This document shows positions 1,668 to 57,062 of a DNA stretch of 59,401 bases, piece by piece. Numbering within the stretch: position 1 is the stretch's first letter; each line of letters begins with the position of its first letter. The position numbers were made by a program, and so were the translations under genes. The DNA comes from a virus, in IMG/VR virus record IMGVR_UViG_3300002038_000009, positions 1-59,401 of that record; one strand, 5' to 3'. The notes below the pieces were generated by a model. That model saw only the letters and a list, made by a program, of their open reading frames with translations, had not been told where the DNA came from and did no database searches.

Positions 1668-2097
1668 CACGCTCTCCAAAGTACTCACGTATGCCAAGTG
1701 CAACTTCAGGCTCAAAGAAGTTTTCAGGATGAGCCATCAGAATGTCCTGTATCTCATCGAAGGAGCACCTTAATATGTCATTGATAATTACAATGGAAGT
1801 GGGTCCAGTCAAATATCCTTCTATGTCCTTGCCAGTGATTTTCAAATCACTGGCCGTGCCTACATCATGCATTAGTCCTAAGCCGGGAACCAATGATTCA
1901 TAGGCATCATCATCGCCCAATCGTCGTCCACAGTAGTTTGAGCACCCCATTATCTTATTGGCAACACCTAGGCTGCAATAAGCTGCGGTGGGCTCACTTA
2001 ACTCAAGGTCACTTGTGTGGCACTGCTCGTAATCAGGTAGGTGTTCGATCCAGTTGAGAGCGTTATTGATCTTTTCTTCTACTGTTAGGTGCTTCAT
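1654..2097 (-). CDS. hypothetical protein (147 aa)
   Basis: ORF track. ATGA-type overlap with the next gene. Confidence 0.7.
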   Translation of the reverse strand: MKHLTVEEKINNALNWIEHLPDYEQCHTSDLELSEPTAAYCSLGVANKIMGCSNYCGRRLGDDDAYESLVPGLGLMHDVGTASDLKITGKDIEGYLTGPTSIVIINDILRCSFDEIQDILMAHPENFFEPEVALGIREYFGERDDNE

Positions 2098-3432: not shown

Positions 3433-3461
3433 AATTTACCACGGCCTATGAAAGAGTGCAA
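3433..3461 (-). promoter_or_regulatory. candidate leftward early promoter (TTGCAC-N17-TAAATT)
   Basis: On the minus strand the -35 TTGCAC is at 3461-3456 and the -10 TAAATT at 3438-3433, with a 17-nt spacer. It sits about 30 nt upstream of the first leftward gene. Confidence 0.5.
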
Positions 3462-3623
3462 CTTTTATTTTATAATGGCCTCTGTTAGACAGATGTACAG
3501 TACACTTTACAAATGTCTAATAGGTGATTTTAGATTGTATGATTTATAATATAATTAAACTATAGTTAATGTAATAATAGATAAACTGTCTAATACAGTA
3601 CGAGAGTACGTTTTCTCGGAACA

Positions 3624-3652
3624 AAAGTGTACTGTAAAACGTACTGTCTTTT
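3624..3652. repeat. left arm of a 29-bp perfect inverted repeat (AAAGTGTACTGTAAAACGTACTGTCTTTT)
   Basis: The reverse complement is present at 3850-3878. It contains two GTACTGT half-sites. Confidence 0.9.
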
Positions 3653-3849
3653 TGCCTTTAAAATCAAGTGTTTAGTGAAAACAGTATGCTAAGTATACTA
3701 TTTCTTCTATTTAAAGAGTTTATAAAATATATAATATATATACCCTATAGAATCTCAGAAAAATAAAAATAAAAACTTTTTTGGGCGTTTTTAGCATACT
3801 CTCGTACTTTCGGCCATTTTGAAAACGTAAGTCCTTGAAATCGTTGAAC

Positions 3850-3878
3850 AAAAGACAGTACGTTTTACAGTACACTTT
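3850..3878. repeat. right arm of the 29-bp inverted repeat
   Basis: AAAAGACAGTACGTTTTACAGTACACTTT is the reverse complement of 3624-3652. Confidence 0.9.
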
Positions 3879-3900
3879 CTAAAATGAAAACGTACTGTCC

Positions 3901-3929
3901 TTGTACTCTAGGGGCGGGTGTAGTAAAAT
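3901..3929 (+). promoter_or_regulatory. candidate rightward early promoter (TTGTAC-N17-TAAAAT)
   Basis: -35 at 3901-3906 and -10 at 3924-3929. It lies immediately downstream of an ACAGTAC-type repeat (3886-3900) and 32 nt upstream of ATG 3961. Confidence 0.45.
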
Positions 3930-3960: not shown

Positions 3961-4695
3961 ATGAGTAACGAAGATAAACACACACTTTTCCCTTGGGAGA
4001 CACAGGGTACACTTTTTGGCCCCGCTGATTTAGGTATTGGAAGATCACCTGAACCAAACCCAGATACATCTAATCAAGTAGGGGATATCAATTCAGATGA
4101 GGTTGGTAGTGGTGCGCGCTACAACGGGGGTAAACCCGATTTTTCTTTGTTGATTATAAAGGACCTGCCTGTTGTTGCCGCTTCCTCGGGTCTTCTAGTG
4201 TCTGCAATAAAAAACCTCGGGGAGTTTCAAATAAGTGGTGATGCTGATTATTTGGATAAGGCTTTAAAGGACACTTACGTATATGCACATACCCAGTTAG
4301 AAACAGAATATGTTTTCGAACCAGTGGTTCGGGTTTGGGAATTTGGCCAGAGGAAGTACGCTCGATGGAATTGGACTAAGGGCATGGCTTGGAGTGTGCC
4401 GATCGCATGTGCGGTACGTCATTGGCTGGCTATCGTGGAGAAGAAGGAGCCCATCGATGAGGACTCGGGTTATCCCCATTGGGCGCACATCGTGTGCAAC
4501 TTGCAAATGCTCAAGCAATACACCCGATCGTATCTTGAAGGAAATGACTTACCATACTTGACTTATCAAAAAGATGACCGCTTCACGATATCGGGTACCC
4601 TAACAGAATTTGATGTGACCGCTTGGCAACACGGGGCCGAACAGATAAACGGTACTTTACAATTCCAAACTCAAAATTCAATAAACCAAAATTAG
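3961..4695 (+). CDS. all-alpha (MazG-like) NTP pyrophosphohydrolase-like protein, resembling the dATP/dGTP diphosphohydrolase N-terminal (DUF5664-type) family
   Basis: Motifs recognised by eye: ARYNGGKPDFSLL, WEFGQRKYARWNWTKG, AVRHW, DEDSGYPHWAHIVCNLQML. Confidence 0.55.
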   Translation: MSNEDKHTLFPWETQGTLFGPADLGIGRSPEPNPDTSNQVGDINSDEVGSGARYNGGKPDFSLLIIKDLPVVAASSGLLVSAIKNLGEFQISGDADYLDKALKDTYVYAHTQLETEYVFEPVVRVWEFGQRKYARWNWTKGMAWSVPIACAVRHWLAIVEKKEPIDEDSGYPHWAHIVCNLQMLKQYTRSYLEGNDLPYLTYQKDDRFTISGTLTEFDVTAWQHGAEQINGTLQFQTQNSINQN

Positions 4696-4974: not shown

Positions 4975-5397
4975 ATGCTAATAAAATCTCGGGATCGAAG
5001 GAAGGGTATCTCCGAATTATTAGATCAGTGGGCAGACTGGGTGTTTCATCAAGATAAGGGTGAACTTCGGGCATTAGGTATTAAATCGTGGTTGGGTGAA
5101 TTAGTTCGTAACAACAACACAGACATAAACACCTACCATGAACCGATGCCTGTTATAGACTTAAGTCACCACGATGCTAGGATGACCATTATAGATGGTG
5201 CAGTTAAATCATTACCCCGTTTGCAAAGAGAGACAATTTTAATTGAGTACATCGTTAGGCGCCGTGATCGCAAAGAGATTAGGGAGAACTGGCTGCAGGT
5301 ACACAATAGGACCTACAATGCTCATCGTAAGATGATTTCATCGGTTAAAGATATATTGTGGATAATAATTGAGAAACCACTTGACAACCTAGTATAA
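4975..5397 (+). CDS. candidate Q-type transcription antiterminator (140 aa)
   Basis: LLDQWADWV... and ...ARMTIIDGAVKSLPRLQRETILIEY resemble the small lambdoid Q (QuuQ-like) family pattern LERWGAWA / DDDAMxIxxxMxxL. Its 3' end overlaps a promoter that is followed by a terminator. Confidence 0.45.
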   Translation: MLIKSRDRRKGISELLDQWADWVFHQDKGELRALGIKSWLGELVRNNNTDINTYHEPMPVIDLSHHDARMTIIDGAVKSLPRLQRETILIEYIVRRRDRKEIRENWLQVHNRTYNAHRKMISSVKDILWIIIEKPLDNLV

Positions 5398-5409
5398 AAT
5401 AATTAATAT
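5381..5409 (+). promoter_or_regulatory. sigma70-type promoter (TTGACA-N17-TAATAT), PR'-like position
   Basis: -35 at 5381-5386 and -10 at 5404-5409, about 60 nt upstream of terminator 5468-5504. Confidence 0.55.
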
Positions 5410-5467: not shown

Positions 5468-5504
5468 AATCCCCTTCCGCCTTGTTCGGTTGGGGATTTT
5501 TTTT
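5468..5504 (+). terminator. Rho-independent terminator
   Basis: Stem AATCCCC (5468-5474) / GGGGATT (5492-5498), followed by a T8 run. Confidence 0.8.
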
Positions 5505-5508
5505 CGCC

Positions 5509-5591
5509 AAAGTGCAACTTTCATATGGATTAGTGAAGTGCAACTTGTATCTGTGGGAATCAAAGTGCAACTTGTATATCTGTGGGAATAA
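5509..5591 (+). repeat. three copies of AAGTGCAACTT, the last two inside a 27/29-bp tandem unit (AAGTGCAACTTGTAT(AT)CTGTGGGAAT)
   Basis: Motif at 5511-5520, 5537-5546 and 5564-5573. Tandem units at 5536-5562 and 5563-5591. Confidence 0.9.
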
Positions 5592-5732: not shown

Positions 5733-6162
<430 letters not shown>

Positions 6163-9372: not shown

Positions 9373-9445
9373 TTTAAAGAATTTGATCTGCGCACGCTAA
9401 CAAAGCCCGTCATTCCAGTGAACACGTTTCACCTTTGACGCGTCC

Positions 9446-9482
9446 AAACCCCGTTTCTATTGGCGTAGAGCGGGGTTTTTAT
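9446..9482 (+). terminator. Rho-independent terminator
   Basis: AAACCCCG (9446-9453) / CGGGGTTT (9471-9478), followed by a T run. Confidence 0.8.
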
Positions 9483-9725
9483 TTAAAATTCATGCAAAGT
9501 GGAGTTGTTATTTCTTAAGGTTGTAGATAGTTAATATCCAATATCCGGATAATGGATAATTAAATCAAAAAGATAGAGCTATATCGTGTAGATATTCCGT
9601 ATTCGAATGTGGAATAGCGGCGTTGACTAATTCAAGTTGTTCGTAAAACTTGAAAATACGCCAACGTAAGTGAGATTTGCAAGCTTACTGATGAGTATAC
9701 AAACTCGCTGCAAATGTATACCTAT

Positions 9726-9749
9726 AAGTTGCTTTTGAAGTTGCTTTTG
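9726..9749 (+). repeat. perfect tandem 12-mer AAGTTGCTTTTG x2
   Basis: Direct reading. The second copy supplies TTGCTT, which with an 18-nt spacer faces TATAAG at 9765-9770. Confidence 0.85.
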
Positions 9750-9850
9750 GTTTAAAAAGAAGCATATAAGGGTACCCACACTACCAAAATATCGACATGT
9801 TTAAACTATGTGTCGGTTGCATAAACATATCTATGCAAAAAGGATCTCCC

Positions 9851-10033
9851 ATGAACCCCGAACAAATTTTAATAAGGCGCCAGCAGCGTAAATTGCTAGG
9901 AGCCTGTGCTACTTGCACTCACGCAACAGAAAACTATAAAAACCTTGGCGCCCCCGCTTGTGAAAAGGGGTCCGCCACCTTCAAGAAAAAACAATGCGCC
10001 CGCTTTGAGTATAACTCTCATTGGGCCCGCTAG
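9851..10033 (+). CDS. small Cys-rich protein (60 aa from ATG 9851)
   Basis: AGGA RBS 6 nt upstream of MNPEQILIRRQQ. The ORF track extends to 9797. Confidence 0.5.
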   Translation: MNPEQILIRRQQRKLLGACATCTHATENYKNLGAPACEKGSATFKKKQCARFEYNSHWAR

Positions 10034-10193: not shown

Positions 10194-11909
10194 ATGACTT
10201 TTGTCGCAACTGATTGGTCGTTTGATCGTGCTAATGGTAACTTACGTTACATTGGTGGTGATCATGACGGCACAGGGGGTACGCCTAGCTACGCCACCAC
10301 CCTTGAGATACACAGAGCTATTCAGGATTTCGAAGATAACTTGACTAGTTCCGGTGACGATGAAATCGACATCACCGACATCGACTTCTCTAGCCGATCA
10401 ACAGATAACATTATAACCTTGATTGGTTCAGCTAATATCGATGATGCTTCCTCGGAACACATCTACAATGGCTCTATCATTCAGAATGGTGGTGATGACA
10501 TCTATGACGGTATCGTTAACTTCGGTAACTCGACCGTTCAGATCCAGATCATCCAGAACGGTACTGTTTTAGCCGATGACTGGTGGAACTTCAGTGGGGG
10601 TGGTTTGAATGCTGACGGCAATGCTGGTATCTCACACAACTTTATGATCAAAACCCGTGATGCGGGTGCAGACATCGATGGTCGACGCCTTTTGGGCACA
10701 ACTAAAGTGTATGGTAAAACATACTCTGAGTTCCCAATTAACGGAACGCAGCGTGGTCTAAACGTACTGGCTCTTTCTAATACTGACGATCTTAATAACG
10801 CTACAGCTTCAGGTACAGTTGCGGCCTATCCGATCACAAACCTTACAGAAGGTTATAACGGGATCGATGTTGACGGTAACGGATCAGACGAGTTCTACTA
10901 CTCAGAATGGGACCTAGCGGGACAAGCTATCAATGACTATTATGAGTATGCTAAGTACATCACACGTGACGGATCAGCAGAAACCTTGTACGGACTATCG
11001 GGTGAGTTGTTTCGGGGTATAACGCACGAGATCGACATTGATACACCTACGGGCACGTTTAATGCGTTTGAGCCCGTTAGTTGGGCAACAGGGACTGGGC
11101 AAATGCTTGCTATCGATTCCCCGACGGCTGGGACGAAGATGTATATACAACTTCTAACCGGCGTGGCACCAACTGACAACCAAACAATCACAGGCGGTAC
11201 GTCTACGGCAACTGCCGATGTTAACCTGACGGTTACAGAACGCCCTGTTGCCGATGTATTTGTTGGCGTATCAACGGGTTCCGCTATTATCGGAGCCTAC
11301 GGACTTGGTATCGAAAGTGCTGATCTTGCCGCAACAGACAAAGTATTTGATTTAACAAATACACAGATCACACCGCCTAACCAAGTAACGTTCAGCGTAT
11401 CGGGGCTGGTAATTGGCGAGGACACTGTTCACGTAGCACCTTGGGACGGGGCTAGTACCGATGTCAATGGAGACCCGGCCTTTGATAAGGACCAACTATC
11501 CCTGAATACGGCTCTGACCACCGATAACATTACATCTGTGGTAACCACAGCCGCGATTCCATCCGACACCCCTTCTTCTGGCTATATCCGAGTAGTGGAC
11601 GATAATGGCTTCTCTCGTAGGCTAAGTTATTCAAGTTGGACTGGATCGGTGTTCACAATCGACTCTACGGACGGACAAGAAGACTTTGCCGCCGTGAACG
11701 CTAGTGTGTCAAACAATGTTTGGATCAGTTACCTAGACTTAGTTGCGACAGCCACCACCGAGACATTCACAGTGGTTTACGATTCTGATCGACAACTAGT
11801 GGTACTTGTTCGAGACGGCGGGGGTACTCCGATTAAGCAATTTATCACCTCGGCTACTTTAGGTAGTTCAGGTGGTTCTGTATCGGCTATTAGGACTTCC
11901 GACTTGTAG
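10194..11909 (+). CDS. large virion-protein candidate (571 aa, Gly/Thr/Asp-rich; fibre or spike-like)
   Basis: Long ORF with GGAG RBS. First gene after the structured leader. Function inferred only from size, composition and context. Confidence 0.6.
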   Translation: MTFVATDWSFDRANGNLRYIGGDHDGTGGTPSYATTLEIHRAIQDFEDNLTSSGDDEIDITDIDFSSRSTDNIITLIGSANIDDASSEHIYNGSIIQNGGDDIYDGIVNFGNSTVQIQIIQNGTVLADDWWNFSGGGLNADGNAGISHNFMIKTRDAGADIDGRRLLGTTKVYGKTYSEFPINGTQRGLNVLALSNTDDLNNATASGTVAAYPITNLTEGYNGIDVDGNGSDEFYYSEWDLAGQAINDYYEYAKYITRDGSAETLYGLSGELFRGITHEIDIDTPTGTFNAFEPVSWATGTGQMLAIDSPTAGTKMYIQLLTGVAPTDNQTITGGTSTATADVNLTVTERPVADVFVGVSTGSAIIGAYGLGIESADLAATDKVFDLTNTQITPPNQVTFSVSGLVIGEDTVHVAPWDGASTDVNGDPAFDKDQLSLNTALTTDNITSVVTTAAIPSDTPSSGYIRVVDDNGFSRRLSYSSWTGSVFTIDSTDGQEDFAAVNASVSNNVWISYLDLVATATTETFTVVYDSDRQLVVLVRDGGGTPIKQFITSATLGSSGGSVSAIRTSDL

Positions 11910-28300: not shown

Positions 28301-30295
28301 ATTACCAACGGTAATGAGATCGGTGGGGCCTTACAAATTGCTAATGGAGGTGTACGAGGGTACAACGCATTTCAGTCATTTACTGGTGGCCAGCAGTTAG
28401 GCGGCAACATAGTAGGCGGACTTGGAGTAGCCGGTGGACTTTACGGTATTTACGGTGGTATTCGTCAGGGCGGACTAGAAGGGTATGGTTCGGCCGCTAT
28501 CAGTGCATATCAAACATACGCGTCGTTACAAGCACTCGGATTCCTTGGTGGCGGTGTCGCCGGGGCAGGGGCAGGAACGATAGGCGCAGGCGTACTTGGT
28601 AGTGGTGTTGGCGGTGCTGGCGTGGGTGCAACTTTAACTGGTGGAGGCGGAGCTGCAATAACTGGCGGAGGTCTAGGGGCCGGAGCGGGTGGTGGTAGCG
28701 GAGCTGCAGCCGGAGCGTTAGGTACTACAGGCGCTGTCCTTGGGTACGTTGCAATTGCTGCAGCATTAGACCAAGTTCTTTTAGATGGGAAAATCGGTGA
28801 CGCCGGTTTCCGAGCCGATAGAGCTAAATACGAGGATATTAAAAACGGTGGTTTCGGGGGCTTAGCCAAAGCACTTAACCGTGACTTCACAGGGGACACA
28901 CTCAGAACTTTTGTCGGTGGTCTGATCGGACGAGGAGCCCGATCGTATGAAGAAATACTACAAGAGGATCGTCTACCAGAGTTACTTGGAATTAACGCAG
29001 GTTCCGCGTTTGGAGCCAACGGTGGATTAGGGTTTAACGGCGGTAACGCAGGTATATTCGGAGCCAACTTCGGTATCCGGGGGTCTGGGCTAACCGCCCA
29101 GTTCTTAGCCAATGGTGGCGAGAATGGTAACGGTGGTTTCTTTACAGGTGCCCAATCAAGTCTCGATGGTTTTGAAGAGGCCTTGAGGGAAGCCGGTTTT
29201 GATGGACTGATTAATAACACGGCCGGAACCCTACGGGTTTTCGATGAAGAAAAAACCATCGAAGACATCATGGCTGTGTGGCGCACATACTCTGAAGGAC
29301 TAGAAGAGAACGTGGCCGCAAGTGAGGTTTTCCGAACCGCGGTTGAAAATGGCTTGCTCGGACACGAGTCTCATGCTAAACTATTCTTCGAAAATTTCGC
29401 AGTAGGTTTTGGTCAGTCTGCTTTTGAGGCACGTGACTCACTTCTATTGATCGATTCACGCTTCGATGAATTACGTGATAACGGCATAGCCGCTACCGAC
29501 GCGCTATTCCAGTCTATCGGAGAGCACTATGGTATAGCAGTAGAGGATGCCCAGTTCTTTGTAGAGCAGACAGGTGTGAGTGTTGATCAATGGGTAGAGA
29601 ACTTTACTAACGCAAGCGATCAAAACCTAGCAGCCTTACTAGAGTTTAACGGTGATGGTGTAACTGCATTCGAGGATGCGCTACGCACTATGGACGCCGC
29701 TTCTAGTGATATGTCAGCCTCTGTGAGTGAGGACTTCCAAGGTATAGCCGGTACCGCTGCAGAGCAAGCTAGAAGGGCTGCCGACGCATTTGGTGGTAGT
29801 TTCGATACTATTACTGATGGCAGTGAGCTAGCAATCGACTCAATCGGCGCGGACTTCTCTAGTCTAACAGATAAGATACAGCAGCAAGGTACAGATGCAG
29901 CCAATGCTTATAAAGAGAGCTTACGTTCTCTAGAAGGTACTCTGAACGGCGTTAACCTAGGTACTCCTAGGGCGGGCAAAGCCAGTATTAGTGTTGAGAG
30001 CGGTGGGAATATCCGTGACCTAGGGCAGTTTAACAGCGCTCTCAGTGGTAGTGAGACTGTTACCCCCGGAGGGTTTGGGTTAGGTAGTACCTTAGATAAG
30101 CAGTACACCTTGGGTATGAACGATCAAGAATCCTTGACAGTTAACCGTAAGGGGATGATTGAACGTATAGAAAGAAAGATTGATCAACTCGATAACCAGT
30201 CACGGGGTGAATCTTCGAACGGAGACATTAAGAAATTGTTGCAAGAGGTTAGAAAACAGAATAAATATCTGGGGGCGCTAGTACGTGAACGTTAA
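25349..30295 (+). CDS. tape measure protein (1648 aa)
   Basis: Very long, with coiled-coil Ala/Glu/Gln/Leu-rich regions and a long Gly-rich hydrophobic segment. Position is after the chaperones. Confidence 0.9.
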   Translation: MTRTISEHLLRLTGDNSGFVRAADGSSSAIKRLDESSRRGQASLDRYNSSLQVSTRATTAFARAFGGITIGLVAREFVQAADSMTLLEGRLKLVTDGTNDLISTQQNLFSVAQDSRASLEATTSFYVRLAQRLGEATTGSLELSEITELVSKSLKIGGATAKETTSSLLQLSQALSSGLLRGDEFRSLSENAVGLMQNIADGANLTQAELRALSIEGKLTTELILDALANSAPEIRRQFNEIPVTFGDAVQRLQNIAVQGVADFNQEFKVTDKLVETVEFLGNNIEGLTQLFTALVAVKVGRSIAETTAAMRASSAAAQAQSAALISAERATVRKALADAGASRAARDDLIIQQQRTRALISAGGPQARLIELKKADAVLTTSLARANTRLLTSDVALAQAKRQLAAATATTTTVMSRLGSVVGVLGGPVGIALLATQLAFMFDVFGDGNEQIELTTRSFEELSNKTQELTELGFEDLTLRKQQIEEEIAWRSAIDSTIEGNQQKLGIAQELLKVTEEELAQTREGQELALEDLRNQKAALAAEEQRLSSRARLNSSIIGLTANQNELVAVQRELKIIEDQLTVAARERQAASDDSLVAFVSTLSAETEGAQIRRKLIEGLEDEASKITAKRVELERLKTLQQETNNNDSLSAEGKKVLAEQIKKLTEQIEGRTKKSKNQLDIVEQLEKKESDLRAEIEKLTSAHQASGEQVSIFSVALESKRKELEKHLGIIPDVSAKVEELTAKYISGEITVKEYEKALKQLKLTQQEVEAVLRESGATYDKAEAALKKLNQAQQDQLEIQRIAATEGEVAAEVYRELAKVADDYGLTVEELKEKYPELIEKQAEFIEQREGLEEVNKAIEDFSTSLADAIVEGENLGDFFKELWKKMVKDFIASGITKLIGSLISGNGFDFSGFTVGGGGGGTGGALLGGLLNGGRGGTSPNGSGGLIQQGGQALGLTADQTTAVIDGAGAVLSLYNGYQQITNGNEIGGALQIANGGVRGYNAFQSFTGGQQLGGNIVGGLGVAGGLYGIYGGIRQGGLEGYGSAAISAYQTYASLQALGFLGGGVAGAGAGTIGAGVLGSGVGGAGVGATLTGGGGAAITGGGLGAGAGGGSGAAAGALGTTGAVLGYVAIAAALDQVLLDGKIGDAGFRADRAKYEDIKNGGFGGLAKALNRDFTGDTLRTFVGGLIGRGARSYEEILQEDRLPELLGINAGSAFGANGGLGFNGGNAGIFGANFGIRGSGLTAQFLANGGENGNGGFFTGAQSSLDGFEEALREAGFDGLINNTAGTLRVFDEEKTIEDIMAVWRTYSEGLEENVAASEVFRTAVENGLLGHESHAKLFFENFAVGFGQSAFEARDSLLLIDSRFDELRDNGIAATDALFQSIGEHYGIAVEDAQFFVEQTGVSVDQWVENFTNASDQNLAALLEFNGDGVTAFEDALRTMDAASSDMSASVSEDFQGIAGTAAEQARRAADAFGGSFDTITDGSELAIDSIGADFSSLTDKIQQQGTDAANAYKESLRSLEGTLNGVNLGTPRAGKASISVESGGNIRDLGQFNSALSGSETVTPGGFGLGSTLDKQYTLGMNDQESLTVNRKGMIERIERKIDQLDNQSRGESSNGDIKKLLQEVRKQNKYLGALVRER

Positions 30296-40856: not shown

Positions 40857-42757
40857 AATGTTATTTCCTTAATCGATCCCCAAGATGATCCACGTTCTAC
40901 ATCGACCACCAAAGGTACTTTAACTACAAAGGCTGTTTCCATAAGGTGCTTGACCTCGCGCATAGCCTCTATGTGCTCACTACTTTGGTTTGCGCTGAAA
41001 TCTAGCTCATCGTGTACCGTCAGCATAGGTACCCCAACCACAGCACATACCCCCGACTGATAAATGTCCACCATCGCTTTCTTCATAACGTCAGCGGCAG
41101 ACCCCTGAACTACGGCGTTAAGAGCTTTGTATGTAAACGCTCGTTTAATGTTCGGTCCGTACTCATGCAGCGCCTCCGCGTGGGGTTTAGGGAACTTACC
41201 TTTCTGCCAACGGCTAGGCTCATACAGATCAAACCGTCGGCGGCGACCCGCCAATGTATGTACGTGACCACGACTGTCGGCAGTCCTCTTGGCTAGGTCC
41301 AATAATTCTTTCATGAAAGGAACGTTATCGTGGAACCGGTTCAGGATCTGCTTGCCCTCGGACATTCCTACCCCTAGTGATTCAGATAATTTTTTAACTC
41401 CCATTCCATAAATTAACCCAAAGTTGATCACCTTAGCTTGTTTACGGGTTATCCCAATATCTTTTGCTGTCATCCCATGAGCATCGAATAATGGATCGTC
41501 CGCATAGTGTGCACGCATGGCTTCCGCGGCAGGCCCTTTGGCATAGTGTAGTGCTAATCGATATTCAACAGATGAATAATCTAGTTTATACCAATCCTCT
41601 CCATCCTCAGGTACGTACAAGGATCGTATTAATGGGTCACCGGGTATGTTCTGTAAGTTTGGCAGGGAAGAACTGAACCGCCCGGTGACGGTACCGTACT
41701 CGTCTCCCCTTAATTGATTAAACGCTGGATGTATTCGGTCACGAACAACATAACTATTTATGTAGCTGTCTAAGAACACGTCGTGCATCTTGGTCGCTTT
41801 CTTAAGCTCGTTAACCTTGATCCCAAACTCAGAGTTCTCGAGTACGGCCGCAGTAAACGATGGGTTACCTGCCTCGGTACGCGCATAGGGTAAGTGCAAC
41901 TTTGTATAAGCTTCTTCCAAACATGCGTTCTCATAAACAGCTATTGGCATCCCCGCCATTTGATCGATTTCTTTCTGGAGCTGGATCATTCGTTTGGCCG
42001 CCCCGCTCTGAACCTCATCGACCATAGACATGTTGACCCGGACACCACGGGACTTCATATCTAACAGCATTGGTATCAACGCCGTCTCTAAATCAAACAC
42101 GTCCCAAAGCGCTTGTTTAGATAACTCTTCACGTTGACGCTCCCAGATTCTTAACGGCAGGGTTACGTCCCCAATACCATACTTAGCAACTACCTCAGGC
42201 GGGCAGCGGTAAATATTACCCGCCTGTGTTCTAGTGGCTCTTCCCCCAAATTGAGAGGCACAGTACTCATAGAGTTCGTCATCAACCTTGGCTTCCCCCA
42301 AATACTTATCAGCCAGCGCACCTAAGCTGTAGGACTTGGCGTTCTCATCGATAAGCGGTTCGGCTACCTGAACATCAATAATCTTACCGGCGGGACGAAC
42401 ACCCTGTTGATTTGATAAATAATCTAGGTCGTAGAGTGCGTTCGCAAACAACACTTCCCGATGAGGGTTTTCCATTAGATTCTTCAACCAGTGTATGGTC
42501 TCTTCAGCATTAAAACACTCATCTTCATACCCCTCGTGTTCGATAGGTATATACCAACCATCGATGGTGCCTTGTTCGAACTCTGCCCCCACACCGATAC
42601 CCGCTATGTACCCACCTGTACGAACACTAGGGCCGGTGCTTTTAAGATTAGGGTCATATGTTTCTATGTCTATGCATAGTCTAATGGCCTCATCTAAGTT
42701 TGGTAACTCGTTAATCTTGACCAGACTATTTGTTCCGATATCGTGGTTATATATCAT
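40853..42757 (-). CDS. family A DNA polymerase with 3'-5' exonuclease domain (634 aa from ATG 42757; the ORF track extends to 42898)
   Basis: DIETYD (Exo I), DYSSVEYRLALH (motif A), RKQAKVINFGLIYGMG (motif B), LTVHDELDF (motif C). Confidence 0.9.
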   Translation of the reverse strand: MIYNHDIGTNSLVKINELPNLDEAIRLCIDIETYDPNLKSTGPSVRTGGYIAGIGVGAEFEQGTIDGWYIPIEHEGYEDECFNAEETIHWLKNLMENPHREVLFANALYDLDYLSNQQGVRPAGKIIDVQVAEPLIDENAKSYSLGALADKYLGEAKVDDELYEYCASQFGGRATRTQAGNIYRCPPEVVAKYGIGDVTLPLRIWERQREELSKQALWDVFDLETALIPMLLDMKSRGVRVNMSMVDEVQSGAAKRMIQLQKEIDQMAGMPIAVYENACLEEAYTKLHLPYARTEAGNPSFTAAVLENSEFGIKVNELKKATKMHDVFLDSYINSYVVRDRIHPAFNQLRGDEYGTVTGRFSSSLPNLQNIPGDPLIRSLYVPEDGEDWYKLDYSSVEYRLALHYAKGPAAEAMRAHYADDPLFDAHGMTAKDIGITRKQAKVINFGLIYGMGVKKLSESLGVGMSEGKQILNRFHDNVPFMKELLDLAKRTADSRGHVHTLAGRRRRFDLYEPSRWQKGKFPKPHAEALHEYGPNIKRAFTYKALNAVVQGSAADVMKKAMVDIYQSGVCAVVGVPMLTVHDELDFSANQSSEHIEAMREVKHLMETAFVVKVPLVVDVERGSSWGSIKEITL

Positions 42758-44193: not shown

Positions 44194-46641
44194 TTATTTA
44201 CTCACCATTTGGACCCATGCACGGGCGGGATCGCCTAGTACGAGGTCACTAACATCTTTCTTTTGCTTAAGTGCTTTCAACACACCCTCATCGATGGTAT
44301 CAACGCACACTAAATCTAGGTACAGACACTTGGAGGTTTGTCCCGTTCTATGGGTACGGTCCTCGGATTGCCTGCGATCACGTAACGAATAACTGTTAGA
44401 AAAGAACACGTTATTGGATGCGTTCACGAGGGTGTGGCCACGTGACATGGTTCGGTTAGTCACCAGTGTATCACAGGTCTCATCGTTTTTAAACCGATAA
44501 ATTTGTTCCTCTCGTGCCTCACCAAGGACGCCCCCATGAACGACAGCGCATCGGTCCTCGCCAAGGGCCTCAACGACAGCATCGATTTCATCTCGGTACC
44601 TGCACCATGTGATTAAGTCAGTAGTAGCCGTGTACTTATCAACGTTCTCACGTAACCACCTGATCTTGGGCTCGTCCTTAATGAACACACCCTTGTCCGC
44701 AAACCCCCCGGTGATACGCGATAGTTTGCCCATCAGGTCCAGTGCATTTTTGGCGTACACCACACGTGCTTCCTCTAACTCTTCAGGTGCAACTTGTCCC
44801 TCACGACAGGCGGCCTCAACTTCTTGGAACTCTTCGAGTAGGTAGAACGCACGCTCCTCCATATCTCGATAGAAGCGATTCTGTTCACGGCCCATCTCGA
44901 GAGGTATCGTTTTATAGACTTTAGCAGGCAGGTCAACACAGTCCTCTTTCAGTACGCGATCGCTACAGGTCTTCATGATAGCGCCCAACTTATCCAGATT
45001 ACGGTGCCCCACCGGGAACTTCTGGATGATCTCACGGGCACCTTTCTTGATAACCTTGTCCGCCATATAACTGTATCGTGCGCGAAAACTATAATAGTCT
45101 TGCTTTAATATTGAGGGACTCAAAAACTGTAGTTGTGACCAAGCGGCGAGCGGCTTACTATCCACGGGGGTGCCTGTAGCGATACGACGCGCCACAAATT
45201 TCGGAGCTTGCTTAATTAAGTACTTGGTCCTCTTAGCATCTGGGTTACCGATGTCATCAGATTCGTCTATAATCCCAAAGCAGCGATGAGTTTTTAAAAG
45301 GTACTCGAGCGCAGCAAACTGCTTTTTAGCCCGTGAGAATCCTTCGGTTGGAAAACAAATGATCTTTAGCTTGTCGCGATGATTGGCTTCATCTATGACT
45401 CCAACGAATTCTTTCTCCCACCTCTTACCCTTACTGTTATAGTAGGTCCAGCTTATGTATTCGTCATCGGCTACCGCAAGGTGTTTGGGAATCTCCTCAA
45501 CTACCCAGTTAGCGTGTACACCGTTCGGTGCAATCACCACCACACAATCTATGGCGCCTCGTGCGTAGGCATGAGCGGCATGGTCAAGTAATGTTTTTGT
45601 TTTCCCTGTATTACCCGTCGGGAACACCTTTCCATTTCGTCTTAGTAACAACCCACCGGAAGGGGTGGTGAAACAATATTTCTTATCCCCTTCTTGTGGA
45701 GGATAGTATGTTATATTACTGGCCCTTACTGTGGTCAGACCTTTGTTTGATTTGCGTGCCCTAACTACAAAGTTACCGCGACCATCCGCTCCCTTAGAAG
45801 CGTAGCAACCTATCCCTCCGAACACTAGTTGTATGAAATCAGCATCCGATTCAATTGTGGTGTAAAATTCTTGTCGTTCTTGATTACCATCCCATTGTAA
45901 GCACTCGGATTTTATAATCTTCATGTCTTCTTGGTCTGCCTCCCACCAAAACCCATGATAATCCTTCTGCTTTACAGGGGCTTCAAATGAAAAAATAGTG
46001 TACCCTGTTGTTTTACAAACACGTTCGTATACATTTGAGGTGTCTCTCAATAACCATCTCAGGCGCTCTATCTTTCTACCCTTCTTAAGACGTATGGTAC
46101 AGCGAGAGGTCTTACAGTTAGATGGGAAATAACCATCCGCCTGTACAGCCACCTGTAACCTGATGTCGTTTTCTGACATACCTAATTTACTTTGAATACC
46201 CTTTCCTAAACTTAGTCTATAAGTGGTGGGTAAGAACTGCATCGCAGTGGGGGAGGCGCTTAAGCGATCAACCAACTCCCCCGCGTGAGTAAAACCGGCA
46301 TTTCTATTCTGCTTAGTTAGGGTGGGCATCCGGTGTGAGCTGCATAACATTTGATCCAGCCCGCGATTATGTTTAAAGTGATGGAAGCCGTCACTGGGGT
46401 ACACATGGTACTCTGACGGCTCGACTAGACTCACCTCTAAAGTAGCGGGGTCCCATTGGCCTACTAGATCCCCCTCACAATACTCATCAATTCTTTTCCA
46501 ACCGCCGGTCGTTAAAAACTCAGTGTCGGATGAAACACACCCTTGCTCCCAGAACAGCCCAAAGAACTTGTGTGTTCTGAACTGCTCGTAACCGTACTTT
46601 TGATGAGCCATTGGCTCGGTCTTTAAGACTATCTCTGTCAT
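44194..46641 (-). CDS. SNF2-family helicase interrupted by an intein
   Basis: Extein motifs FWEQG|TGKTKT (I, split), VVIAPNGVHANW (Ia), IIDESDD (II), QSEDRTHRTGQ (VI). Confidence 0.9.
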   Translation of the reverse strand: MTEIVLKTEPMAHQKYGYEQFRTHKFFGLFWEQGCVSSDTEFLTTGGWKRIDEYCEGDLVGQWDPATLEVSLVEPSEYHVYPSDGFHHFKHNRGLDQMLCSSHRMPTLTKQNRNAGFTHAGELVDRLSASPTAMQFLPTTYRLSLGKGIQSKLGMSENDIRLQVAVQADGYFPSNCKTSRCTIRLKKGRKIERLRWLLRDTSNVYERVCKTTGYTIFSFEAPVKQKDYHGFWWEADQEDMKIIKSECLQWDGNQERQEFYTTIESDADFIQLVFGGIGCYASKGADGRGNFVVRARKSNKGLTTVRASNITYYPPQEGDKKYCFTTPSGGLLLRRNGKVFPTGNTGKTKTLLDHAAHAYARGAIDCVVVIAPNGVHANWVVEEIPKHLAVADDEYISWTYYNSKGKRWEKEFVGVIDEANHRDKLKIICFPTEGFSRAKKQFAALEYLLKTHRCFGIIDESDDIGNPDAKRTKYLIKQAPKFVARRIATGTPVDSKPLAAWSQLQFLSPSILKQDYYSFRARYSYMADKVIKKGAREIIQKFPVGHRNLDKLGAIMKTCSDRVLKEDCVDLPAKVYKTIPLEMGREQNRFYRDMEERAFYLLEEFQEVEAACREGQVAPEELEEARVVYAKNALDLMGKLSRITGGFADKGVFIKDEPKIRWLRENVDKYTATTDLITWCRYRDEIDAVVEALGEDRCAVVHGGVLGEAREEQIYRFKNDETCDTLVTNRTMSRGHTLVNASNNVFFSNSYSLRDRRQSEDRTHRTGQTSKCLYLDLVCVDTIDEGVLKALKQKKDVSDLVLGDPARAWVQMVSK
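45610..46539 (-). mobile_element. 310-aa intein inserted in the helicase P-loop, with a possible degenerate LAGLIDADG endonuclease domain
   Basis: Starts CVSSDTEFLT (block A), has LCSSH (block B) and ends ...NGKVFPTGN|T (block G, +1 Thr). Removing it restores GTGKT. LQVAVQADGYF is LAGLIDADG-like. Confidence 0.8.
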
Positions 46642-47549: not shown

Positions 47550-47626
47550 TGGGGTGTTCGATGGGGTTCGAACCCACATCCTCCCAAGTCACAGTCGGGG
47601 GCCTTACCAGTTAGACCACGAACACC
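47550..47626 (-). tRNA. tRNA-His (anticodon GUG) with encoded G-1 and 3' CCA
   Basis: Manual fold of GGTGTTCGTGGTCTAACTGGTAAGGCCCCCGACTGTGACTTGGGAGGATGTGGGTTCGAACCCCATCGAACACCCCA. It gives a 7-bp acceptor stem plus G-1:C73, a D arm GTCT/AGGC, an anticodon stem CCCGA/TTGGG with loop CTGTGAC, and a T arm GTGGG-TTCGAAC-CCCAT. Confidence 0.85.
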
Positions 47627-47662: not shown

Positions 47663-49789
47663 TTAGAATTCTGGATCTACATGCTTAAGGTAAGTATCTA
47701 GTAGATCGCGATCGGTCATAGAACGATAAATCGGATCGTTGGACAGTACACACAAACTGTACCGTTTGGTAGGCTTACCGGGTTGATTCTTATTAATCGC
47801 AAACCGACGGTGGCCATAGTGGTCTAGCACGGTGTTGATCATGCGATTAGAAACGCCACTAATATTTTGCGTTTCTGACATATATTGACGGATAACGGAA
47901 ATCTCACAGATCGGATGGTTGGCCCCAATGTGTTGTAAGGCTTCTTGAGTTTCTTCTGCCCTATCCGGTGCTGTAGTGGTCTCCTGAATAGCAGCCTTAA
48001 ACTTAGCTTGGCGGTCAGATTGAATAGGCGCCTTATTAGGAGTGAACGTTTGAGTGTCGTAGTCCAACAAGTAAGCCATGACTGCTTCCATACCACCGTT
48101 GTAGTATAACCAATCGTGGTAACCGTTTATCCAATCGGCGGTGGCATCACTAACTGTTACACCTGAGTTCTTTATAGCGGTAGCCGAAACAATAACGTAA
48201 TAGCGTCTGTCTGAGGGCTCTATCTCAATAGGCACTAGGTGATTTGACAGGCCTATGAAACGCGTCACATTATCTATCTGGTATTCATTAATATACTTAC
48301 GCTTAACCGTAACCTTATCATTAGTCACCTTTTCTTTAAGGGCGTTGGCCAGTGCCTTGGTCTGCGTACTGTGTGATATCCTCATCTCTTCAATGGCCAC
48401 TACCAATTTGTTTTCCAACAAGGCTGTCCAGTTACCTAGCATATCGGCGGCTGCGATAGCAGAATAGTTGTGCATACCCACCAACCGACCCATGATGTCA
48501 CACAACGTACTCTTGCCCGAACCCTGCCCTCCGATCAGGATGGGCATCCAACGAACCTTTTCCTCCGGGCGTTTGACCGCATGGGACATGAAGCCAAGTA
48601 GGGTAGCAATCGACTCGGGCTCACCGTCGCATAAACTAGCGACATGTCTAAGGAAGGGTGTAACATCCCCCTCTTTTGGTTGAATAGTTGTTGGTCGCCA
48701 GTTGTTCCAGTACTTCTCAACCCCGTGCGCTACGATCAGTTCCTTGTTAGGGAAGTAACCGAACCCTCGTACGTTATTACAGGCTAGCATATGCCCTTTA
48801 ATATCTTTCTGAGAAGCGGTGCGCCCAAAGATAAGTGGAATCTGGTTGGCCTTAAGGTGGGTGCCATCGGTAGTGAACACGTCAGCATCTATCACATAGG
48901 TTAGGTAGGGCATACGTTGTTCTATAGGTAGCGCATCGATCTCCTCTATCTCATAATCCTCTAGGCGAGTAATTTGATCAGAGTACCAGCGCTTAAGTGC
49001 AGCGAAAGCATCATCGGGTAAATGTTGTCGTAGGGTCTGCTCCCCTGCTACACGTCCGCCGTTCTCGAGTTTGCGAATAGTTGCCTTGACTTGAGCACTA
49101 CGATCTTCCACATCACCAGTGATCTCACCGATAGCGGTAACGACATCGAGTATGGTTTCTTCATCGTACTGGTTCTTGGCCAAAAATCCAGCGAGACCGA
49201 GTGACAGGTTATGTCTACTGCCGTCGCTCCAATAAGGCGTGATGAAGTCACAAGTAGCCACAAGTCGAACTTGCCTAAACAGCCAGTCTCCTGATTGGAT
49301 AGTTGCCGGTGAATCTCCGATAAGCTCGATTTTTGCCCCGGAAGGATGCAAGCTCGGAGCAACCATAGTGTACTGTGAGTTATTAGACCCATCCGTTCCC
49401 CGCATCTCACAAGACATCTTGTTAGACGGGAGGGTAAACTGTTTTGTATGTATAGGATCATGACCACTCGGTATGTTATAAAGATAGTGAGTCACCACAC
49501 CATCTTTTTTAAGCATTAAAGTTTTAGGTAATAGCTTAGGGGCATAGCGCCTTGCGTTAGGTGAGTCCAGATCTATATCGACACACGTCTTACCCAATAG
49601 TAGACCAATATTACTAGCACCACCGCTCTTATTGAAGCGCTCGAGTTCGGTAGCCTCCTTCCAAGGGGTGGTCTTCCAGTCTTTATTGGCTGGTATCTTA
49701 CCGCCGGGTCTTCCGGCTATGGGGTGCCACCCTAGCTCGATATAATATTCCGCCGCTTCAGAGGGAGACGAAAACTCTTTAACCAGCAC
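47663..49789 (-). CDS. bifunctional primase-polymerase (AEP) / SF3 (D5/P4-type) helicase
   Basis: N-terminus YYIELGWHPIAGRPGGKIPANKDW and CVDIDLD (AEP). Walker A ILIGGQGSGKST and Walker B VVAIEEM. GTG start. Confidence 0.85.
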   Translation of the reverse strand: MLVKEFSSPSEAAEYYIELGWHPIAGRPGGKIPANKDWKTTPWKEATELERFNKSGGASNIGLLLGKTCVDIDLDSPNARRYAPKLLPKTLMLKKDGVVTHYLYNIPSGHDPIHTKQFTLPSNKMSCEMRGTDGSNNSQYTMVAPSLHPSGAKIELIGDSPATIQSGDWLFRQVRLVATCDFITPYWSDGSRHNLSLGLAGFLAKNQYDEETILDVVTAIGEITGDVEDRSAQVKATIRKLENGGRVAGEQTLRQHLPDDAFAALKRWYSDQITRLEDYEIEEIDALPIEQRMPYLTYVIDADVFTTDGTHLKANQIPLIFGRTASQKDIKGHMLACNNVRGFGYFPNKELIVAHGVEKYWNNWRPTTIQPKEGDVTPFLRHVASLCDGEPESIATLLGFMSHAVKRPEEKVRWMPILIGGQGSGKSTLCDIMGRLVGMHNYSAIAAADMLGNWTALLENKLVVAIEEMRISHSTQTKALANALKEKVTNDKVTVKRKYINEYQIDNVTRFIGLSNHLVPIEIEPSDRRYYVIVSATAIKNSGVTVSDATADWINGYHDWLYYNGGMEAVMAYLLDYDTQTFTPNKAPIQSDRQAKFKAAIQETTTAPDRAEETQEALQHIGANHPICEISVIRQYMSETQNISGVSNRMINTVLDHYGHRRFAINKNQPGKPTKRYSLCVLSNDPIYRSMTDRDLLDTYLKHVDPEF

Positions 49790-50127: not shown

Positions 50128-50394
50128 TTAAGCAGTGTACTGGTCTATTAAATCCGCTAACAGTGCGGTGCAGTGCGCTACTCCAACAACATTATCTTGT
50201 TCCATTAGGTCACGTAACAGTATGGTCAAGGAAACGACATCGCTACTATATCCCTGCCTGACCACCTGTGGTACTGCTAAATTAGCTTGCTCCAAGTCCT
50301 CAGATAAGAAGTGTCCGCGTTCCTCGGCGTCTAGTATGGTCTCACCTTCGTGAACCATGTCTGCTTCCTGTAATATAGCTAATACTAAACTCAT
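50128..50394 (-). CDS. hypothetical acidic protein (88 aa)
   Basis: ORF track. Confidence 0.6.
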   Translation of the reverse strand: MSLVLAILQEADMVHEGETILDAEERGHFLSEDLEQANLAVPQVVRQGYSSDVVSLTILLRDLMEQDNVVGVAHCTALLADLIDQYTA

Positions 50395-50606
50395 AATTGC
50401 CTAACCTGCTTGTTGGTGAAATAAGCGATTTTAGACAGCCCACGTCCTTCCGGTGTGCTAGTTGCCTTAAGTGCAACTTTATAATGCCACCATCGATCAC
50501 CGGCTAAACGTGACTTATGTTCTATCACGGTGCCCACATCGCCCTTACGGTAGCGAATAAAATCGCTACCGGCATGGTCGTCATCTACTAAAATCTCTAC
50601 CTTCAT
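50391..50606 (-). CDS. hypothetical protein (71 aa)
   Basis: ORF track. ATGA overlap. Confidence 0.65.
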   Translation of the reverse strand: MKVEILVDDDHAGSDFIRYRKGDVGTVIEHKSRLAGDRWWHYKVALKATSTPEGRGLSKIAYFTNKQVRQL

Positions 50607-53994: not shown

Positions 53995-54171
53995 TTAAGT
54001 TACCCTCAATAAACATAATTCATGATATATAATTTGATCGATAAGTTCCTCGCGTTCGGCCACTAAGCGGTCAACCGCCAGTCCGAAATCAAGTCCCCTG
54101 CGCTCCTTCTGTACGGCCGCGAGTGCAATTTGTCTCTCAACCGTTTTTAATCTTTGCTCTAGTGTTTTCAT
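53995..54171 (-). CDS. coiled-coil small protein (58 aa), possibly translated from a leaderless mRNA
   Basis: Manual translation gives MKTLEQRLKTVERQIALAAVQKERRGLDFGLAVDRLVAEREELIDQIIYHELCLLRVT. There is no SD. The -10 element ends 6 nt upstream of the ATG. Confidence 0.5.
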   Translation of the reverse strand: MKTLEQRLKTVERQIALAAVQKERRGLDFGLAVDRLVAEREELIDQIIYHELCLLRVT

Positions 54172-54177
54172 GGTTCT

Positions 54178-54206
54178 AATTTAACACGAGTGCAACTTGT
54201 TGTAAA
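54178..54206 (-). promoter_or_regulatory. candidate sigma70 promoter (TTTACA-N17-TAAATT) on the minus strand
   Basis: -35 at 54206-54201 and -10 at 54183-54178. The AGTGCAACTT motif lies in the spacer. Confidence 0.5.
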
Positions 54207-54263
54207 GTATTATTTTACATAGTATTCCCATGCGGTGTAACCACCAAATCACCAAATCACCGT

Positions 54264-54338: not shown

Positions 54339-54767
54339 CTAATTCTTTTCACCACCTTCCGGTAGCATTGCTTTTAGTTTTCGTACAAGCATTGTTAATA
54401 CATGTTCTGCATCTGCACATTGCTTTCTATCCACTGGTTGGACCATAGAACCTGCATAACCAGATTGTGTTGATCTGAAAAATTCAACAGCCTCCACCAT
54501 ACCCCTAGCAATAGACTCCCAGTCTGGTTCTTGGATGTCTTCAGAGAAATGGTCAACCGCCTTAGCGTATATCTGTTTAATCGTTGTCCAGCTTATATTT
54601 GCGTATATGTCTACCTCTCCTGACCCGTGACACGCCTCGCATTCTCCCCCATACCCATCACACTCAGGACATTGAACCTCACCTGCAAACTCCTTAAATT
54701 CGCCAATCATAAGGCCTTTAGCACCATTTTCGGCGGTCAAAGCATTGGGCATCAATATCTTTTTCAT
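54339..54767 (-). CDS. protein with a DnaJ-type CxxCxGxG zinc finger (142 aa from ATG 54767)
   Basis: CPECDGYGGECEACHGSGEV. GGGGGAGAA RBS. The ORF track extends to 54860. Confidence 0.6.
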   Translation of the reverse strand: MKKILMPNALTAENGAKGLMIGEFKEFAGEVQCPECDGYGGECEACHGSGEVDIYANISWTTIKQIYAKAVDHFSEDIQEPDWESIARGMVEAVEFFRSTQSGYAGSMVQPVDRKQCADAEHVLTMLVRKLKAMLPEGGEKN

Positions 54768-54893
54768 TTCTCCCCCTTCTCTAGTAGCACTAGCTCGTGC
54801 CGTTGGCAGGGCGCAAGTTGATTCACAGGTGCAGACTTTTGGTATTTTGTCAAATTGCATCTTTCTTCACCTTTGGGTTGTCTGATTGTTTAC

Positions 54894-56699: not shown

Positions 56700-56819
56700 G
56701 CGGAATACTCCTTAGTTAAAGGGTTTAGGTATTGATCGGCTTTTGCTCATGACCACTACAATTTTACAAAAACTAAAAAATAACAGTGGAAAATCCTAGC
56801 GTGCTTTTGTTCATCTCTG

Positions 56820-57062
56820 CTATGACACATCATCGTCACCGTAACCGCTACCGTCATCGTCATCGTCATCGTAACCGCTACCGCTACCGCTACCGCTACT
56901 GCCACCGTAACCGCCACCGTAACCGCCACCGTAACCGTAACCGTAACAGTAACCGCCACCGCCACCGTAACCGCCACCGCCACCGCCACCGTAACCGCCA
57001 CCGTAACCGCCACCGTAACCGTCACCGATCAAATCATTAAAACTAACTATTTTGGGTTCCAC
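56820..57062 (-). CDS. Gly/Tyr-rich low-complexity protein with a poly-Asp tail (80 aa, GTG start)
   Basis: (M)EPKIVSFNDLIGDGYGGGYGGGYGGGGGGGYGGGGGYCYGYGYGGGYGGGYGGSSGSGSGSGYDDDDDDGSGYGDDDVS. This frame is contiguous with the upstream gene. All three frames are open across the repeat. Confidence 0.5.
   Translation of the reverse strand: MEPKIVSFNDLIGDGYGGGYGGGYGGGGGGGYGGGGGYCYGYGYGGGYGGGYGGSSGSGSGSGYDDDDDDGSGYGDDDVS

Follow-up and report, generated by a model that had tools for sequence, protein, structure and literature searches.

The question raised by the metagenomic phage contig IMGVR_UViG_3300002038_000009, analysed here over its whole stretch of 59,401 nucleotides (the window), is what purpose is served by a 10-mer, AGTGCAACTT, that recurs on one strand and forms a cluster of three at positions 5509-5591. 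The initial annotation had reported eight exact copies, always on the + strand, and all eight are found at those coordinates. The element is real, conserved and functional, and it is not known from the databases and papers searched; a literature search with the raw motif retrieved primers alone. As possible roles a regulator operator, a phage promoter element, replication iterons or priming sites and single-strand nick sites had been named without a choice between them. We favour the binding site of a phage regulator, by virtue of a syntenic cluster next to a sigma-like gene. The motif would tentatively represent an asymmetric binding-site array of this adjacent regulator at the boundary between early and late genes.

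The excess of AGTGCAACTT is beyond chance, since dinucleotide-preserving shuffles contain 0.09 copies on average and none of them reaches eight. Enrichment is carried by the core 9-mer GTGCAACTT with 11 occurrences on the + strand and none on the − strand (order-3 Markov expectation 0.22 and 0.18), which bears out the earlier impression, gained by eye, that no copy is reversed. TGCAACTT is found 13 times on the + and once on the − strand, and sub-word counts place the excess in ∼11-13 sites. A preceding A, described for six of the eight exact copies, corresponds to the six occurrences of AAGTGCAACTT, which is likewise missing from the − strand. If one mismatch to AGTGCAACTT is allowed, 15 matches lie on the + and one on the − strand, with ∼4.4 expected on both strands together. 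The existing list of such copies had to be amended: 247-256 reads GTTGCAACTT and has two mismatches, though TGCAACTT is retained, and copies at 1615, 28625, 37098 and 39234 on the + strand and at 11633 on the − strand had been overlooked. The near-copy at 4493 has a coding explanation, as it spells out a conserved Cys-Asn-Leu of the dGTP_diPhyd protein, and recurs in two relatives (L269, L270). The remaining top k-mers are tandem repeats within coding sequence (5880-5921 and 56910-57020) and do not amount to competing dispersed motifs. Genes of the window form a leftward block, which starts at 40.4 kb, crosses the contig ends and stops at 3.46 kb, and a rightward block from 3961 to 40247. The late arm makes up 58% of the genome and holds one of the 11 core copies (binomial P ∼0.001, or 0.005 with the array counted once); this one, at 28625, could be a chance occurrence. 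Two other ideas on the nature of the motif were dropped: a stand-alone hairpin (AAGT-GCA-ACTT) is not stable, its predicted free energy being 0.0, and by-eye comparisons with sigma-54, IHF, NrdR-box and Tus/Ter sites gave no convincing match.

Relatives were reached via primase homologues (78-81% identity) and via homologues of the 140-aa protein encoded at 4975-5397, upstream of the cluster, and nine loci contain the gene family together with enough downstream sequence (the window, L265, L266 (= L267), L268, L269, L114, L270, L408 and L412). The array is present at the syntenic position in all nine, always including AGTGCAACTT, as a co-oriented run of (A/G)TGCAACTT copies after the gene. Each of the seven loci uncut by a contig end has 3-4 copies, while fewer are visible in L408 and L412, which are cut; all arrays are intergenic. 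The module begins with a gene for a protein of 133-140 aa, whose 3′ end usually harbours a sigma-70-type promoter; a leader of 60-100 nt, a strong intrinsic terminator and an array of up to four co-oriented copies at irregular spacings of 13-41 bp follow in this order. Besides the window, L265, L266, L269 and L412 carry the promoter as CTTGACA/CTTGACG-17-TAnnnT, and the leader contains a recurring tTTGTTrG in the window and four relatives. In eight of the nine loci a strong hairpin with T-run precedes the first unit at a distance of 1-17 nt (−11.5 to −20.8 kcal/mol in the relatives). In the window the terminator reported at 5468-5504 is indeed intrinsic, with a predicted fold of −16.6 kcal/mol followed by a T-run, and stands directly upstream of the array on the + strand. 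The tandem repeat described there is recovered by Tandem Repeats Finder as a repeat of ∼29 bp at 5536-5589, made up of units 2 and 3. Gene and array are adjacent and co-oriented in all array loci, and a hidden Markov model of the family detects the gene in every array-bearing relative.

Over 24 aligned units from seven loci AAGTGCAACTT is invariant, save for a G-to-A change at one position in two units. The flanks vary; the two bases before AAGTGCAACTT are mostly A, and a looser RYATCTGTGG(G)AA often comes after the unit core and is present in every last unit. A long-form unit like unit 2 of the window was also found in L114, L270 and L265. Spacing between units is irregular (16, 22, 24, 26, 27, 28, 30, 31, 32, 35 and 41 bp). 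Protein identity across the array loci falls from 65% to roughly 25-30%, neighbouring proteins are 38-65% identical and the GC content ranges from 0.37 to 0.46. Since the loci differ in GC and their proteins have diverged, the conserved 11-12-mer indicates selection. 

Promoter 5381-5409, leader and terminator together form a short transcription unit resembling lambda pR′/6S RNA/tR′; it has no match in Rfam. Besides tTTGTTrG, a segment TAAC(T)AATACCTT(T)GAT of the leader (∼60-90 nt) recurs in relatives. A second set of repeats 3′ of the array varies by lineage, with CATTCATTTGGTGAATG-type palindromes in L266 (5680-5790), L114 (as reverse complement) and L270 (10610-10720) and GAGAATGATTCTC in L268 (1005-1100), the AGTGCAACTT array itself being unchanged among lineages.

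The copies outside the array behave differently. Absence of the motif from syntenic positions in related phages had been put forward as a possible refutation, and here the answer is divided: synteny holds for the cluster in all relatives but not for the dispersed copies, although these are independently enriched in L253 (primase 78% identical). This relative has five exact copies in 22 kb, all five on one strand and with the same gene-relative orientation as in the window, but at other places. L252, L254, L256, L257/L260 and L259 have none or one, and the L260 contig still bears the array (L270). Because the array is kept where dispersed copies are scarce, it is the core element, to which particular lineages have added dispersed copies. 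They arise by substitution in otherwise alignable coding DNA and in differing phases (KVAL/RSCT in L253, KLHL in the window); within genes of the window they occupy all three codon phases. Both observations show that the signal is not a peptide. Comparing presence and absence of window genes with that of dispersed copies gave no clean candidate gene. The NrdR-like Zn-ribbon protein (675-1061, − strand) is 65% identical in L253 and 41% in the L254 group and elsewhere, a difference that probably reflects overall relatedness; it has an N-terminal zinc ribbon and no recognisable ATP-cone.

Analogues of the motif were sought among the top k-mers of relatives as well, and two were rejected. In L257/L260, AGGCGCATACC belongs to a coding array for pentapeptide repeats (15-nt repeat, L257 3926-4000), and three of the five copies of the 10-mer CTTTTACTAC in L262 encode an in-frame (A/P)FTT peptide, probably a protein repeat. 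Pentapeptide-repeat proteins are found among the early genes of both the window (58294-58875, − strand) and L257 (3926-4000).

A TATA-like tract had been described close behind most copies. It exists at some copies of the window, with a perfect TATAAT at offset 0 from 50470 and at offset 6 from 3455, but is not conserved in relatives as a part of the element. Perfect TATAAT stands beside 3 of 12 dispersed sites, both sides counted, compared to a background of 0.43% per 14-nt window. Its offset varies from 0 to 6 nt, once on the opposite side, which fits an operator overlapping core promoters better than the fixed geometry of an activator. The copies at 3455 and 54189 sit in spacers of rightward promoter-like sites of similar geometry, and the site at 3448-3476 faces the operon that encodes the 140-aa protein. 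At 54189, where the initial annotation had placed the copy in the spacer of a promoter at 54178-54206, promoter-like sites exist on both strands (− 54206-54178; + 54181-54208). The small open reading frame (ORF) that follows leftwards (54002-54172, − strand) encodes ∼57 aa, under the listing threshold of 60 aa, starts with ATG at 54172 and includes the near-copy at 54122; a Shine-Dalgarno sequence is not obvious, and the ORF may be leaderless. Positions of the main features are collected in the Table.

Table. Copies of the motif, units of the array and associated features of the window
Feature	Position	Strand	Context
Gene of the 140-aa protein, candidate binder	4975..5397	+	family always encoded directly upstream of the array
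Sigma-70-type promoter TTGACA-17-TAATAT	5381..5409	+	inside/just past the 3′ end of gene 4975-5397
Array unit 1, short form AAAGTGCAACTT	5509..5520	+	begins 5 nt past the T-run of the terminator
Array unit 2, long form, AAGTGCAACTT with extension GTATCTGTGGG	5536..5557	+	
Array unit 3 (last), AAAGTGCAACTT with GTATATCTGTGGG	5562..5586	+	
Exact copy	1697..1706	+	antisense within minus-strand coding sequence 1654-2097
Exact copy	3455..3464	+	divergent control region; spacer of rightward promoter-like ATGAAA-17-TATAAT (3448-3476)
Exact copy	41893..41902	+	antisense within the PolA gene, codons KLHL; common to L255, not L253/L254
Exact copy	50470..50479	+	antisense within minus-strand coding sequence 50391-50606; perfect TATAAT adjoins
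Exact copy	54189..54198	+	intergenic; a small unlisted ORF reads leftwards from its ATG at 54172, 17 nt downstream of the copy
GGTGCAACTT, core 9-mer intact	44786..44795	+	antisense within the SNF2 helicase gene
GGTGCAACTT	28625..28634	+	sole core copy of the late (structural) arm
Coding tandem repeat CCAGAGCCAGAG	5880-5921	+	6-nt period; ORF 5866-6162 or 5733-5957
Coding tandem repeat ACCGCCACCGTAACC	56910-57020	minus-strand reading	12-nt period; ORF 56756-57025

The 140-aa protein was one of two gene products that the initial annotation had proposed for binding tests, and from its position next to the array it is the candidate partner. Its family is very small, with six matches among 1.8 billion representatives. 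The C-terminal half contains helices that resemble sigma region 4 (LPxLQRETIL.EY...RTYNAHRKMISSVKD). In the AlphaFold model, of moderate confidence with a predicted local distance difference test (pLDDT) score of 66.7, the protein is all-helical with a C-terminal helix-turn-helix. AlgU, sigmaE, sigmaE region 4 on −35 DNA, SigH and SigW recur among the top Foldseek matches in PDB, none of them significant. In BFVD it is RpoE-like phage proteins and those with sigma-70 regions 2/4 that recur, the best match (E 0.07, probability 0.99) also not being significant; E-values of the matches to extracytoplasmic function (ECF) sigma factors range from 0.07 to about 5. A marginal homologue, P0029 (L411), has another repeat, GATCATTAGC, after its terminator, which is suggestive of co-variation but was too weak to be used.

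Module structure, conservation, orientation and freedom from coding constraints are shown by the data; a binding partner and a transcriptional role for the array are what we infer from them. The 10-mer would be the invariant core of an asymmetric protein recognition site of 12 bp, (A)AAGTGCAACTT, often with the looser RYATCTGTGG after it. The main site would be the array, right after the terminator that closes the rightward early operon and bordering the long rightward late/structural block. Its most likely binder is the 4975-5397 protein, which may bind as a monomer via a helix-turn-helix of the sigma-region-4 type; monomer binding would explain an asymmetric site read in one orientation. Several protomers on the array could then control RNA polymerase at the boundary, a late switch by termination, read-through or activation. 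Single extra copies in promoter spacers (3455, 54189) or at a −10 element (50470) could allow the same protein to modulate early promoters. The gene order is lambda-like, with the regulator last in the early-right operon, followed by promoter, short leader, terminator and late block.

Several points weigh against this proposal. The 140-aa protein has no sequence match in Pfam, PHROG or PDB, and its modelled resemblance to sigma factors is weak (PDB E-values >0.7, pLDDT 66.7). Adjacency is the only ground on which the partner was chosen. The motif is invariant even where the putative recognition helix changes (P0026), which could mean a different, more conserved reader, or base pairing. The array lies downstream of the terminator, unlike the lambda Q-binding element. 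A plain operator model leaves the same orientation of the 11 core copies (5 of 5 in L253) unexplained, and it does not account for their accumulation inside leftward genes or their independent gain in two lineages. A conserved −10 at 16-17 bp is absent in the last units and the dispersed copies; the sites are therefore not ordinary ECF promoters, and a self-contained promoter is not supported, as no −10 is conserved at sigma-type spacing. Tandem AAGTGCAACTT arrays also exist in unrelated viral contigs without the 140-aa family, and therefore a more widespread reader of the motif is a possibility.

Such contigs with arrays of the 11-mer are L405 (15 copies), L175/L393, L226, L397, L403 and L168/L170/L245, which have no protein in common with the window. 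The exception is L239, with a pair of GTGCAACTT, which matches the window ORF 54339-54860 (43% over 77 aa). In L405 the 15 units of AAAAGTGCAACTTTTTCTGTCGGTTTC are non-coding (9396-9884) and located beside a RecT-like early operon, and the non-coding copies of L175 (4502-4555) and L393 (2436-2467) come right after a terminator-like hairpin; in none of these three contigs is a homologue of the 140-aa family detectable. A search of IMG/VR gave 26 matches to tandem pairs of the 11-mer and 2 to a reversed-sequence control, an excess of ∼13 times; this control was one reversed pattern only, and it contains CpG. Scanning a genome collection for tandem copies returned mostly unrelated repeats (Verrucomicrobiota, Hydrogenedentes and other metagenome-assembled genomes) and gave no clue to the host.

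A replication origin is an unlikely alternative to a regulator site, even though the surroundings of the array would suit it in several respects. The units would be iterons, bound by the adjacent protein or by the PrimPol/D5-type primase-helicase as initiator, and the dispersed copies secondary loading or priming sites on one template strand. The 3-4 direct repeats are set in an extended non-coding stretch that reaches 825 nt in L266, further repeat families are nearby, phased A-tracts exist in L266 and L268 only, and the terminator upstream would shield this stretch from transcription. PrimPol+DUF5906, PolA and SNF2 are all encoded by the phage, in which no origin is recognised. Archaeo-eukaryotic primases (AEP) of the PrimPol/DUF5906 architecture recognise GTG/GTGG templates (PMC8718748), and the units carry GTG, many with GTGG after it. 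However, the irregular spacing (16-41 bp) shows no helical phasing, no DnaA box with up to one mismatch was found near any array examined, the array region of the window is only 57-68% A+T, and the adjacent protein is sigma-like rather than Rep-like. Relatives with a ∼80% identical primase keep the array with scarcely any dispersed copies. Since the late arm is nearly without copies, these are not general lagging-strand priming sites. The same distribution, with 1 of 11 core copies in the late arm instead of a chromosome-wide spread, speaks against site-specific single-strand interruptions, in which every copy would mark a cut made in one strand by a phage nickase, following the example of T5, phiKMV-like phages and Pseudomonas phage tf. 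In phage tf 14 copies of the 9-mer TACTRTGMC (11 of them identical) are all located on the top strand in two convergent arms, and every copy is nicked (PMC3517423). The 11 identical 9-mers on one strand and none on the other are formally close to tf, and here too the motif is common to relatives at shifting positions. Nevertheless, we consider nicking rather improbable: a scan of roughly 60 ORFs revealed no nuclease or nickase domain, a conserved tandem array joined to a terminator and a regulator gene is undescribed for nick systems, and several relatives retain the array alone.

Orientation, which a plain operator leaves without a reason, would follow directly if the motif acted as RNA. In this reading the array is not in the first place a protein operator: a late transcript reading through the terminator would start with 3-4 copies of AAAGUGCAACUU as tandem seeds of 11-12 nt, while the dispersed copies, situated opposite the leftward genes, would put the exact complement AAGUUGCACU into early and replication mRNAs, and seed-target pairing would shut these mRNAs down late in infection. 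Such a multi-seed, phage-encoded timer could gain and lose targets by point mutation in any reading frame. It would explain the one-strand rule, the limit to the leftward arm, the exact identity over 10-12 nt, the indifference to frame and the rapid turnover of positions; the 11-nt duplex is predicted at −13.8 kcal/mol, and the array would be transcribed only on terminator read-through. By analogy, a related one-strand signal for an elongating polymerase, ops/RfaH-like, could be considered as well. However, the array is invariant in relatives almost without dispersed copies, and an array kept without targets must have another primary role. Together with a copy at 3455 that is probably upstream of the leftward transcription start and the lack of an Rfam match for the RNA, this makes RNA pairing quite improbable. 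Least credible of all seems a host signal, that is, a Chi-like hotspot for RecBCD/AddAB or a site for a conserved host protein, with one orientation relative to rolling-circle replication or cos packaging. Chi sites are typically co-oriented and gained at arbitrary positions, irregular spacing suits sites that act independently, the motif is invariant across phages of differing GC, and tandem pairs are in excess in IMG/VR. This excess rests on the single CpG-containing control pattern, though, and the 12 invariant bases are far longer than known Chi sites, none of which, to our knowledge, goes beyond 5-8 nt. Copies are not genome-wide, the position of the array is fixed at terminator and regulator gene, and the scan of the genome collection gave no motif-enriched host candidate. 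A cos site had been considered too and was dropped: terS comes right after the replication genes in Gwanakrovirus, a related isolate, so that the argument from distance fails; the array lies 9.4 kb from TerS in the window and 3.5 kb in L114.

The window is a whole phage contig of ∼59.4 kb with 45% GC, in which the GC skew follows the direction of transcription. Its leftward block encodes PolA, Pam3 gp33/gp34-like proteins, the SNF2 helicase, the PrimPol/DUF5906 primase-helicase (a PrimPol/D5-type enzyme, 47663-49789), the NrdR-like Zn-ribbon protein and many small ORFs. The SNF2 helicase (44194-46641, − strand) has 815 aa compared to 482-488 aa in L252, L253 and L254, owing to a ∼330-aa N-terminal extension without family match. 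Between the primase-helicase and the SNF2 region a tRNA-His (GTG) is encoded at 47550-47625 on the − strand, to which the motif has no complementarity. The rightward block begins with genes for a MazZ-like dGTP_diPhyd protein, an 88-aa ORF and the 140-aa ORF, continues with ∼9 kb of unknown genes and then encodes lambda-type TerS (DUF1441), TerL (gpA), portal, S49 protease and gpE capsid proteins followed by tail genes. ORF 3961-4695 (+), the first gene of the operon ending in the sigma-like protein and first in all relatives, contains an N-terminal MazZ-like dATP/dGTP diphosphohydrolase domain (PF18909), a sequence feature that hints at nucleotide-pool or DNA-modification chemistry. A second repeat family, ACAGTAC/GTACTGT, occupies the divergent control region between the leftward and rightward early operons (3480-3920), with 7 of its 18 copies in the window lying within 600 bp; it includes TACTGTAAAACGTACTGT (3626-3650) and, as the inverted partner, the reverse complement of this sequence (3855-3880). 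These repeats have the look of operators for another repressor. TerL shares 36-39% identity with that of Casjensviridae and lambdoid prophages. Close isolates were found neither by DNA in INPHARED nor by protein searches with ORF 10194-11909 and the 140-aa protein.

A conserved three-part control module, consisting of a small sigma-like protein, a terminator and an invariant asymmetric array, is thereby defined in a lineage of uncultivated marine phages whose packaging genes are of the lambda type and whose isolated relatives are all distant. In some lineages a one-strand 10-mer can spread through the coding DNA of one arm while the array stays fixed, a behaviour of which Chi sites and phage nick sites are otherwise the main known examples. 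Confirmation of the partner would add a new family to the late-switch regulators; should the copies instead prove to be nicks or RNA targets, these phenomena would be extended to a new phage group.

Among known systems the nicks of tf, T5 and phiKMV-like phages share a short, exact and asymmetric motif in about a dozen copies, on one strand whatever the direction of the genes and in two opposed arms. In the present phage, by contrast, a tandem array stands by a terminator and a regulator gene, the late arm is nearly empty and no nickase is recognisable. Iteron origins (lambda ori, P1 oriR, P4 ori/crr) are alike in their direct non-coding repeats, in a primase-helicase of the P4/pRN1/NrS-1 type and in extra copies; the P4 alpha primase-helicase binds octamer repeats, and P4 crr comprises extra copies elsewhere in the genome. 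They differ from this array in its irregular spacing, its lack of DnaA boxes and of a clear unwinding element, and a neighbouring gene that is not Rep-like. ECF sigma factors are approached through the invariant 3′ half of the motif, GCAACTT, one base off the −35 consensus GGAACTT of sigmaE/AlgU; for Bacillus sigmaM it is TGCAAC. Here no −10 is conserved at 16-17 bp, the 140-aa protein is shorter than known ECF sigmas and its fold match is not significant. Small phage proteins that act on several repeats at the early/late switch are phi29 p4 and TP901-1 Alt, which repress early and activate late promoters; no homology to them exists, and this phage has co-oriented copies genome-wide inside genes, a feature not known from those systems. 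The likeness to lambda Q/pR′/tR′ lies in a regulator gene that is the last of the early-right genes, a strong constitutive promoter, a short leader, a terminator and a late block whose packaging and head genes are of the lambda type. The asymmetric site of Q-lambda, occupied by a monomer, and the tandem direct repeats bound by Q21 are both located at the promoter (PMC9388147), whereas the repeats here are past the terminator, no similarity to the Q family is present and no −10-like pause element is conserved. The one-strand dispersed copies are an unusual addition to a locus that is best filed as one of the phage regulatory repeat arrays, paired with a new family of small sigma-like proteins.

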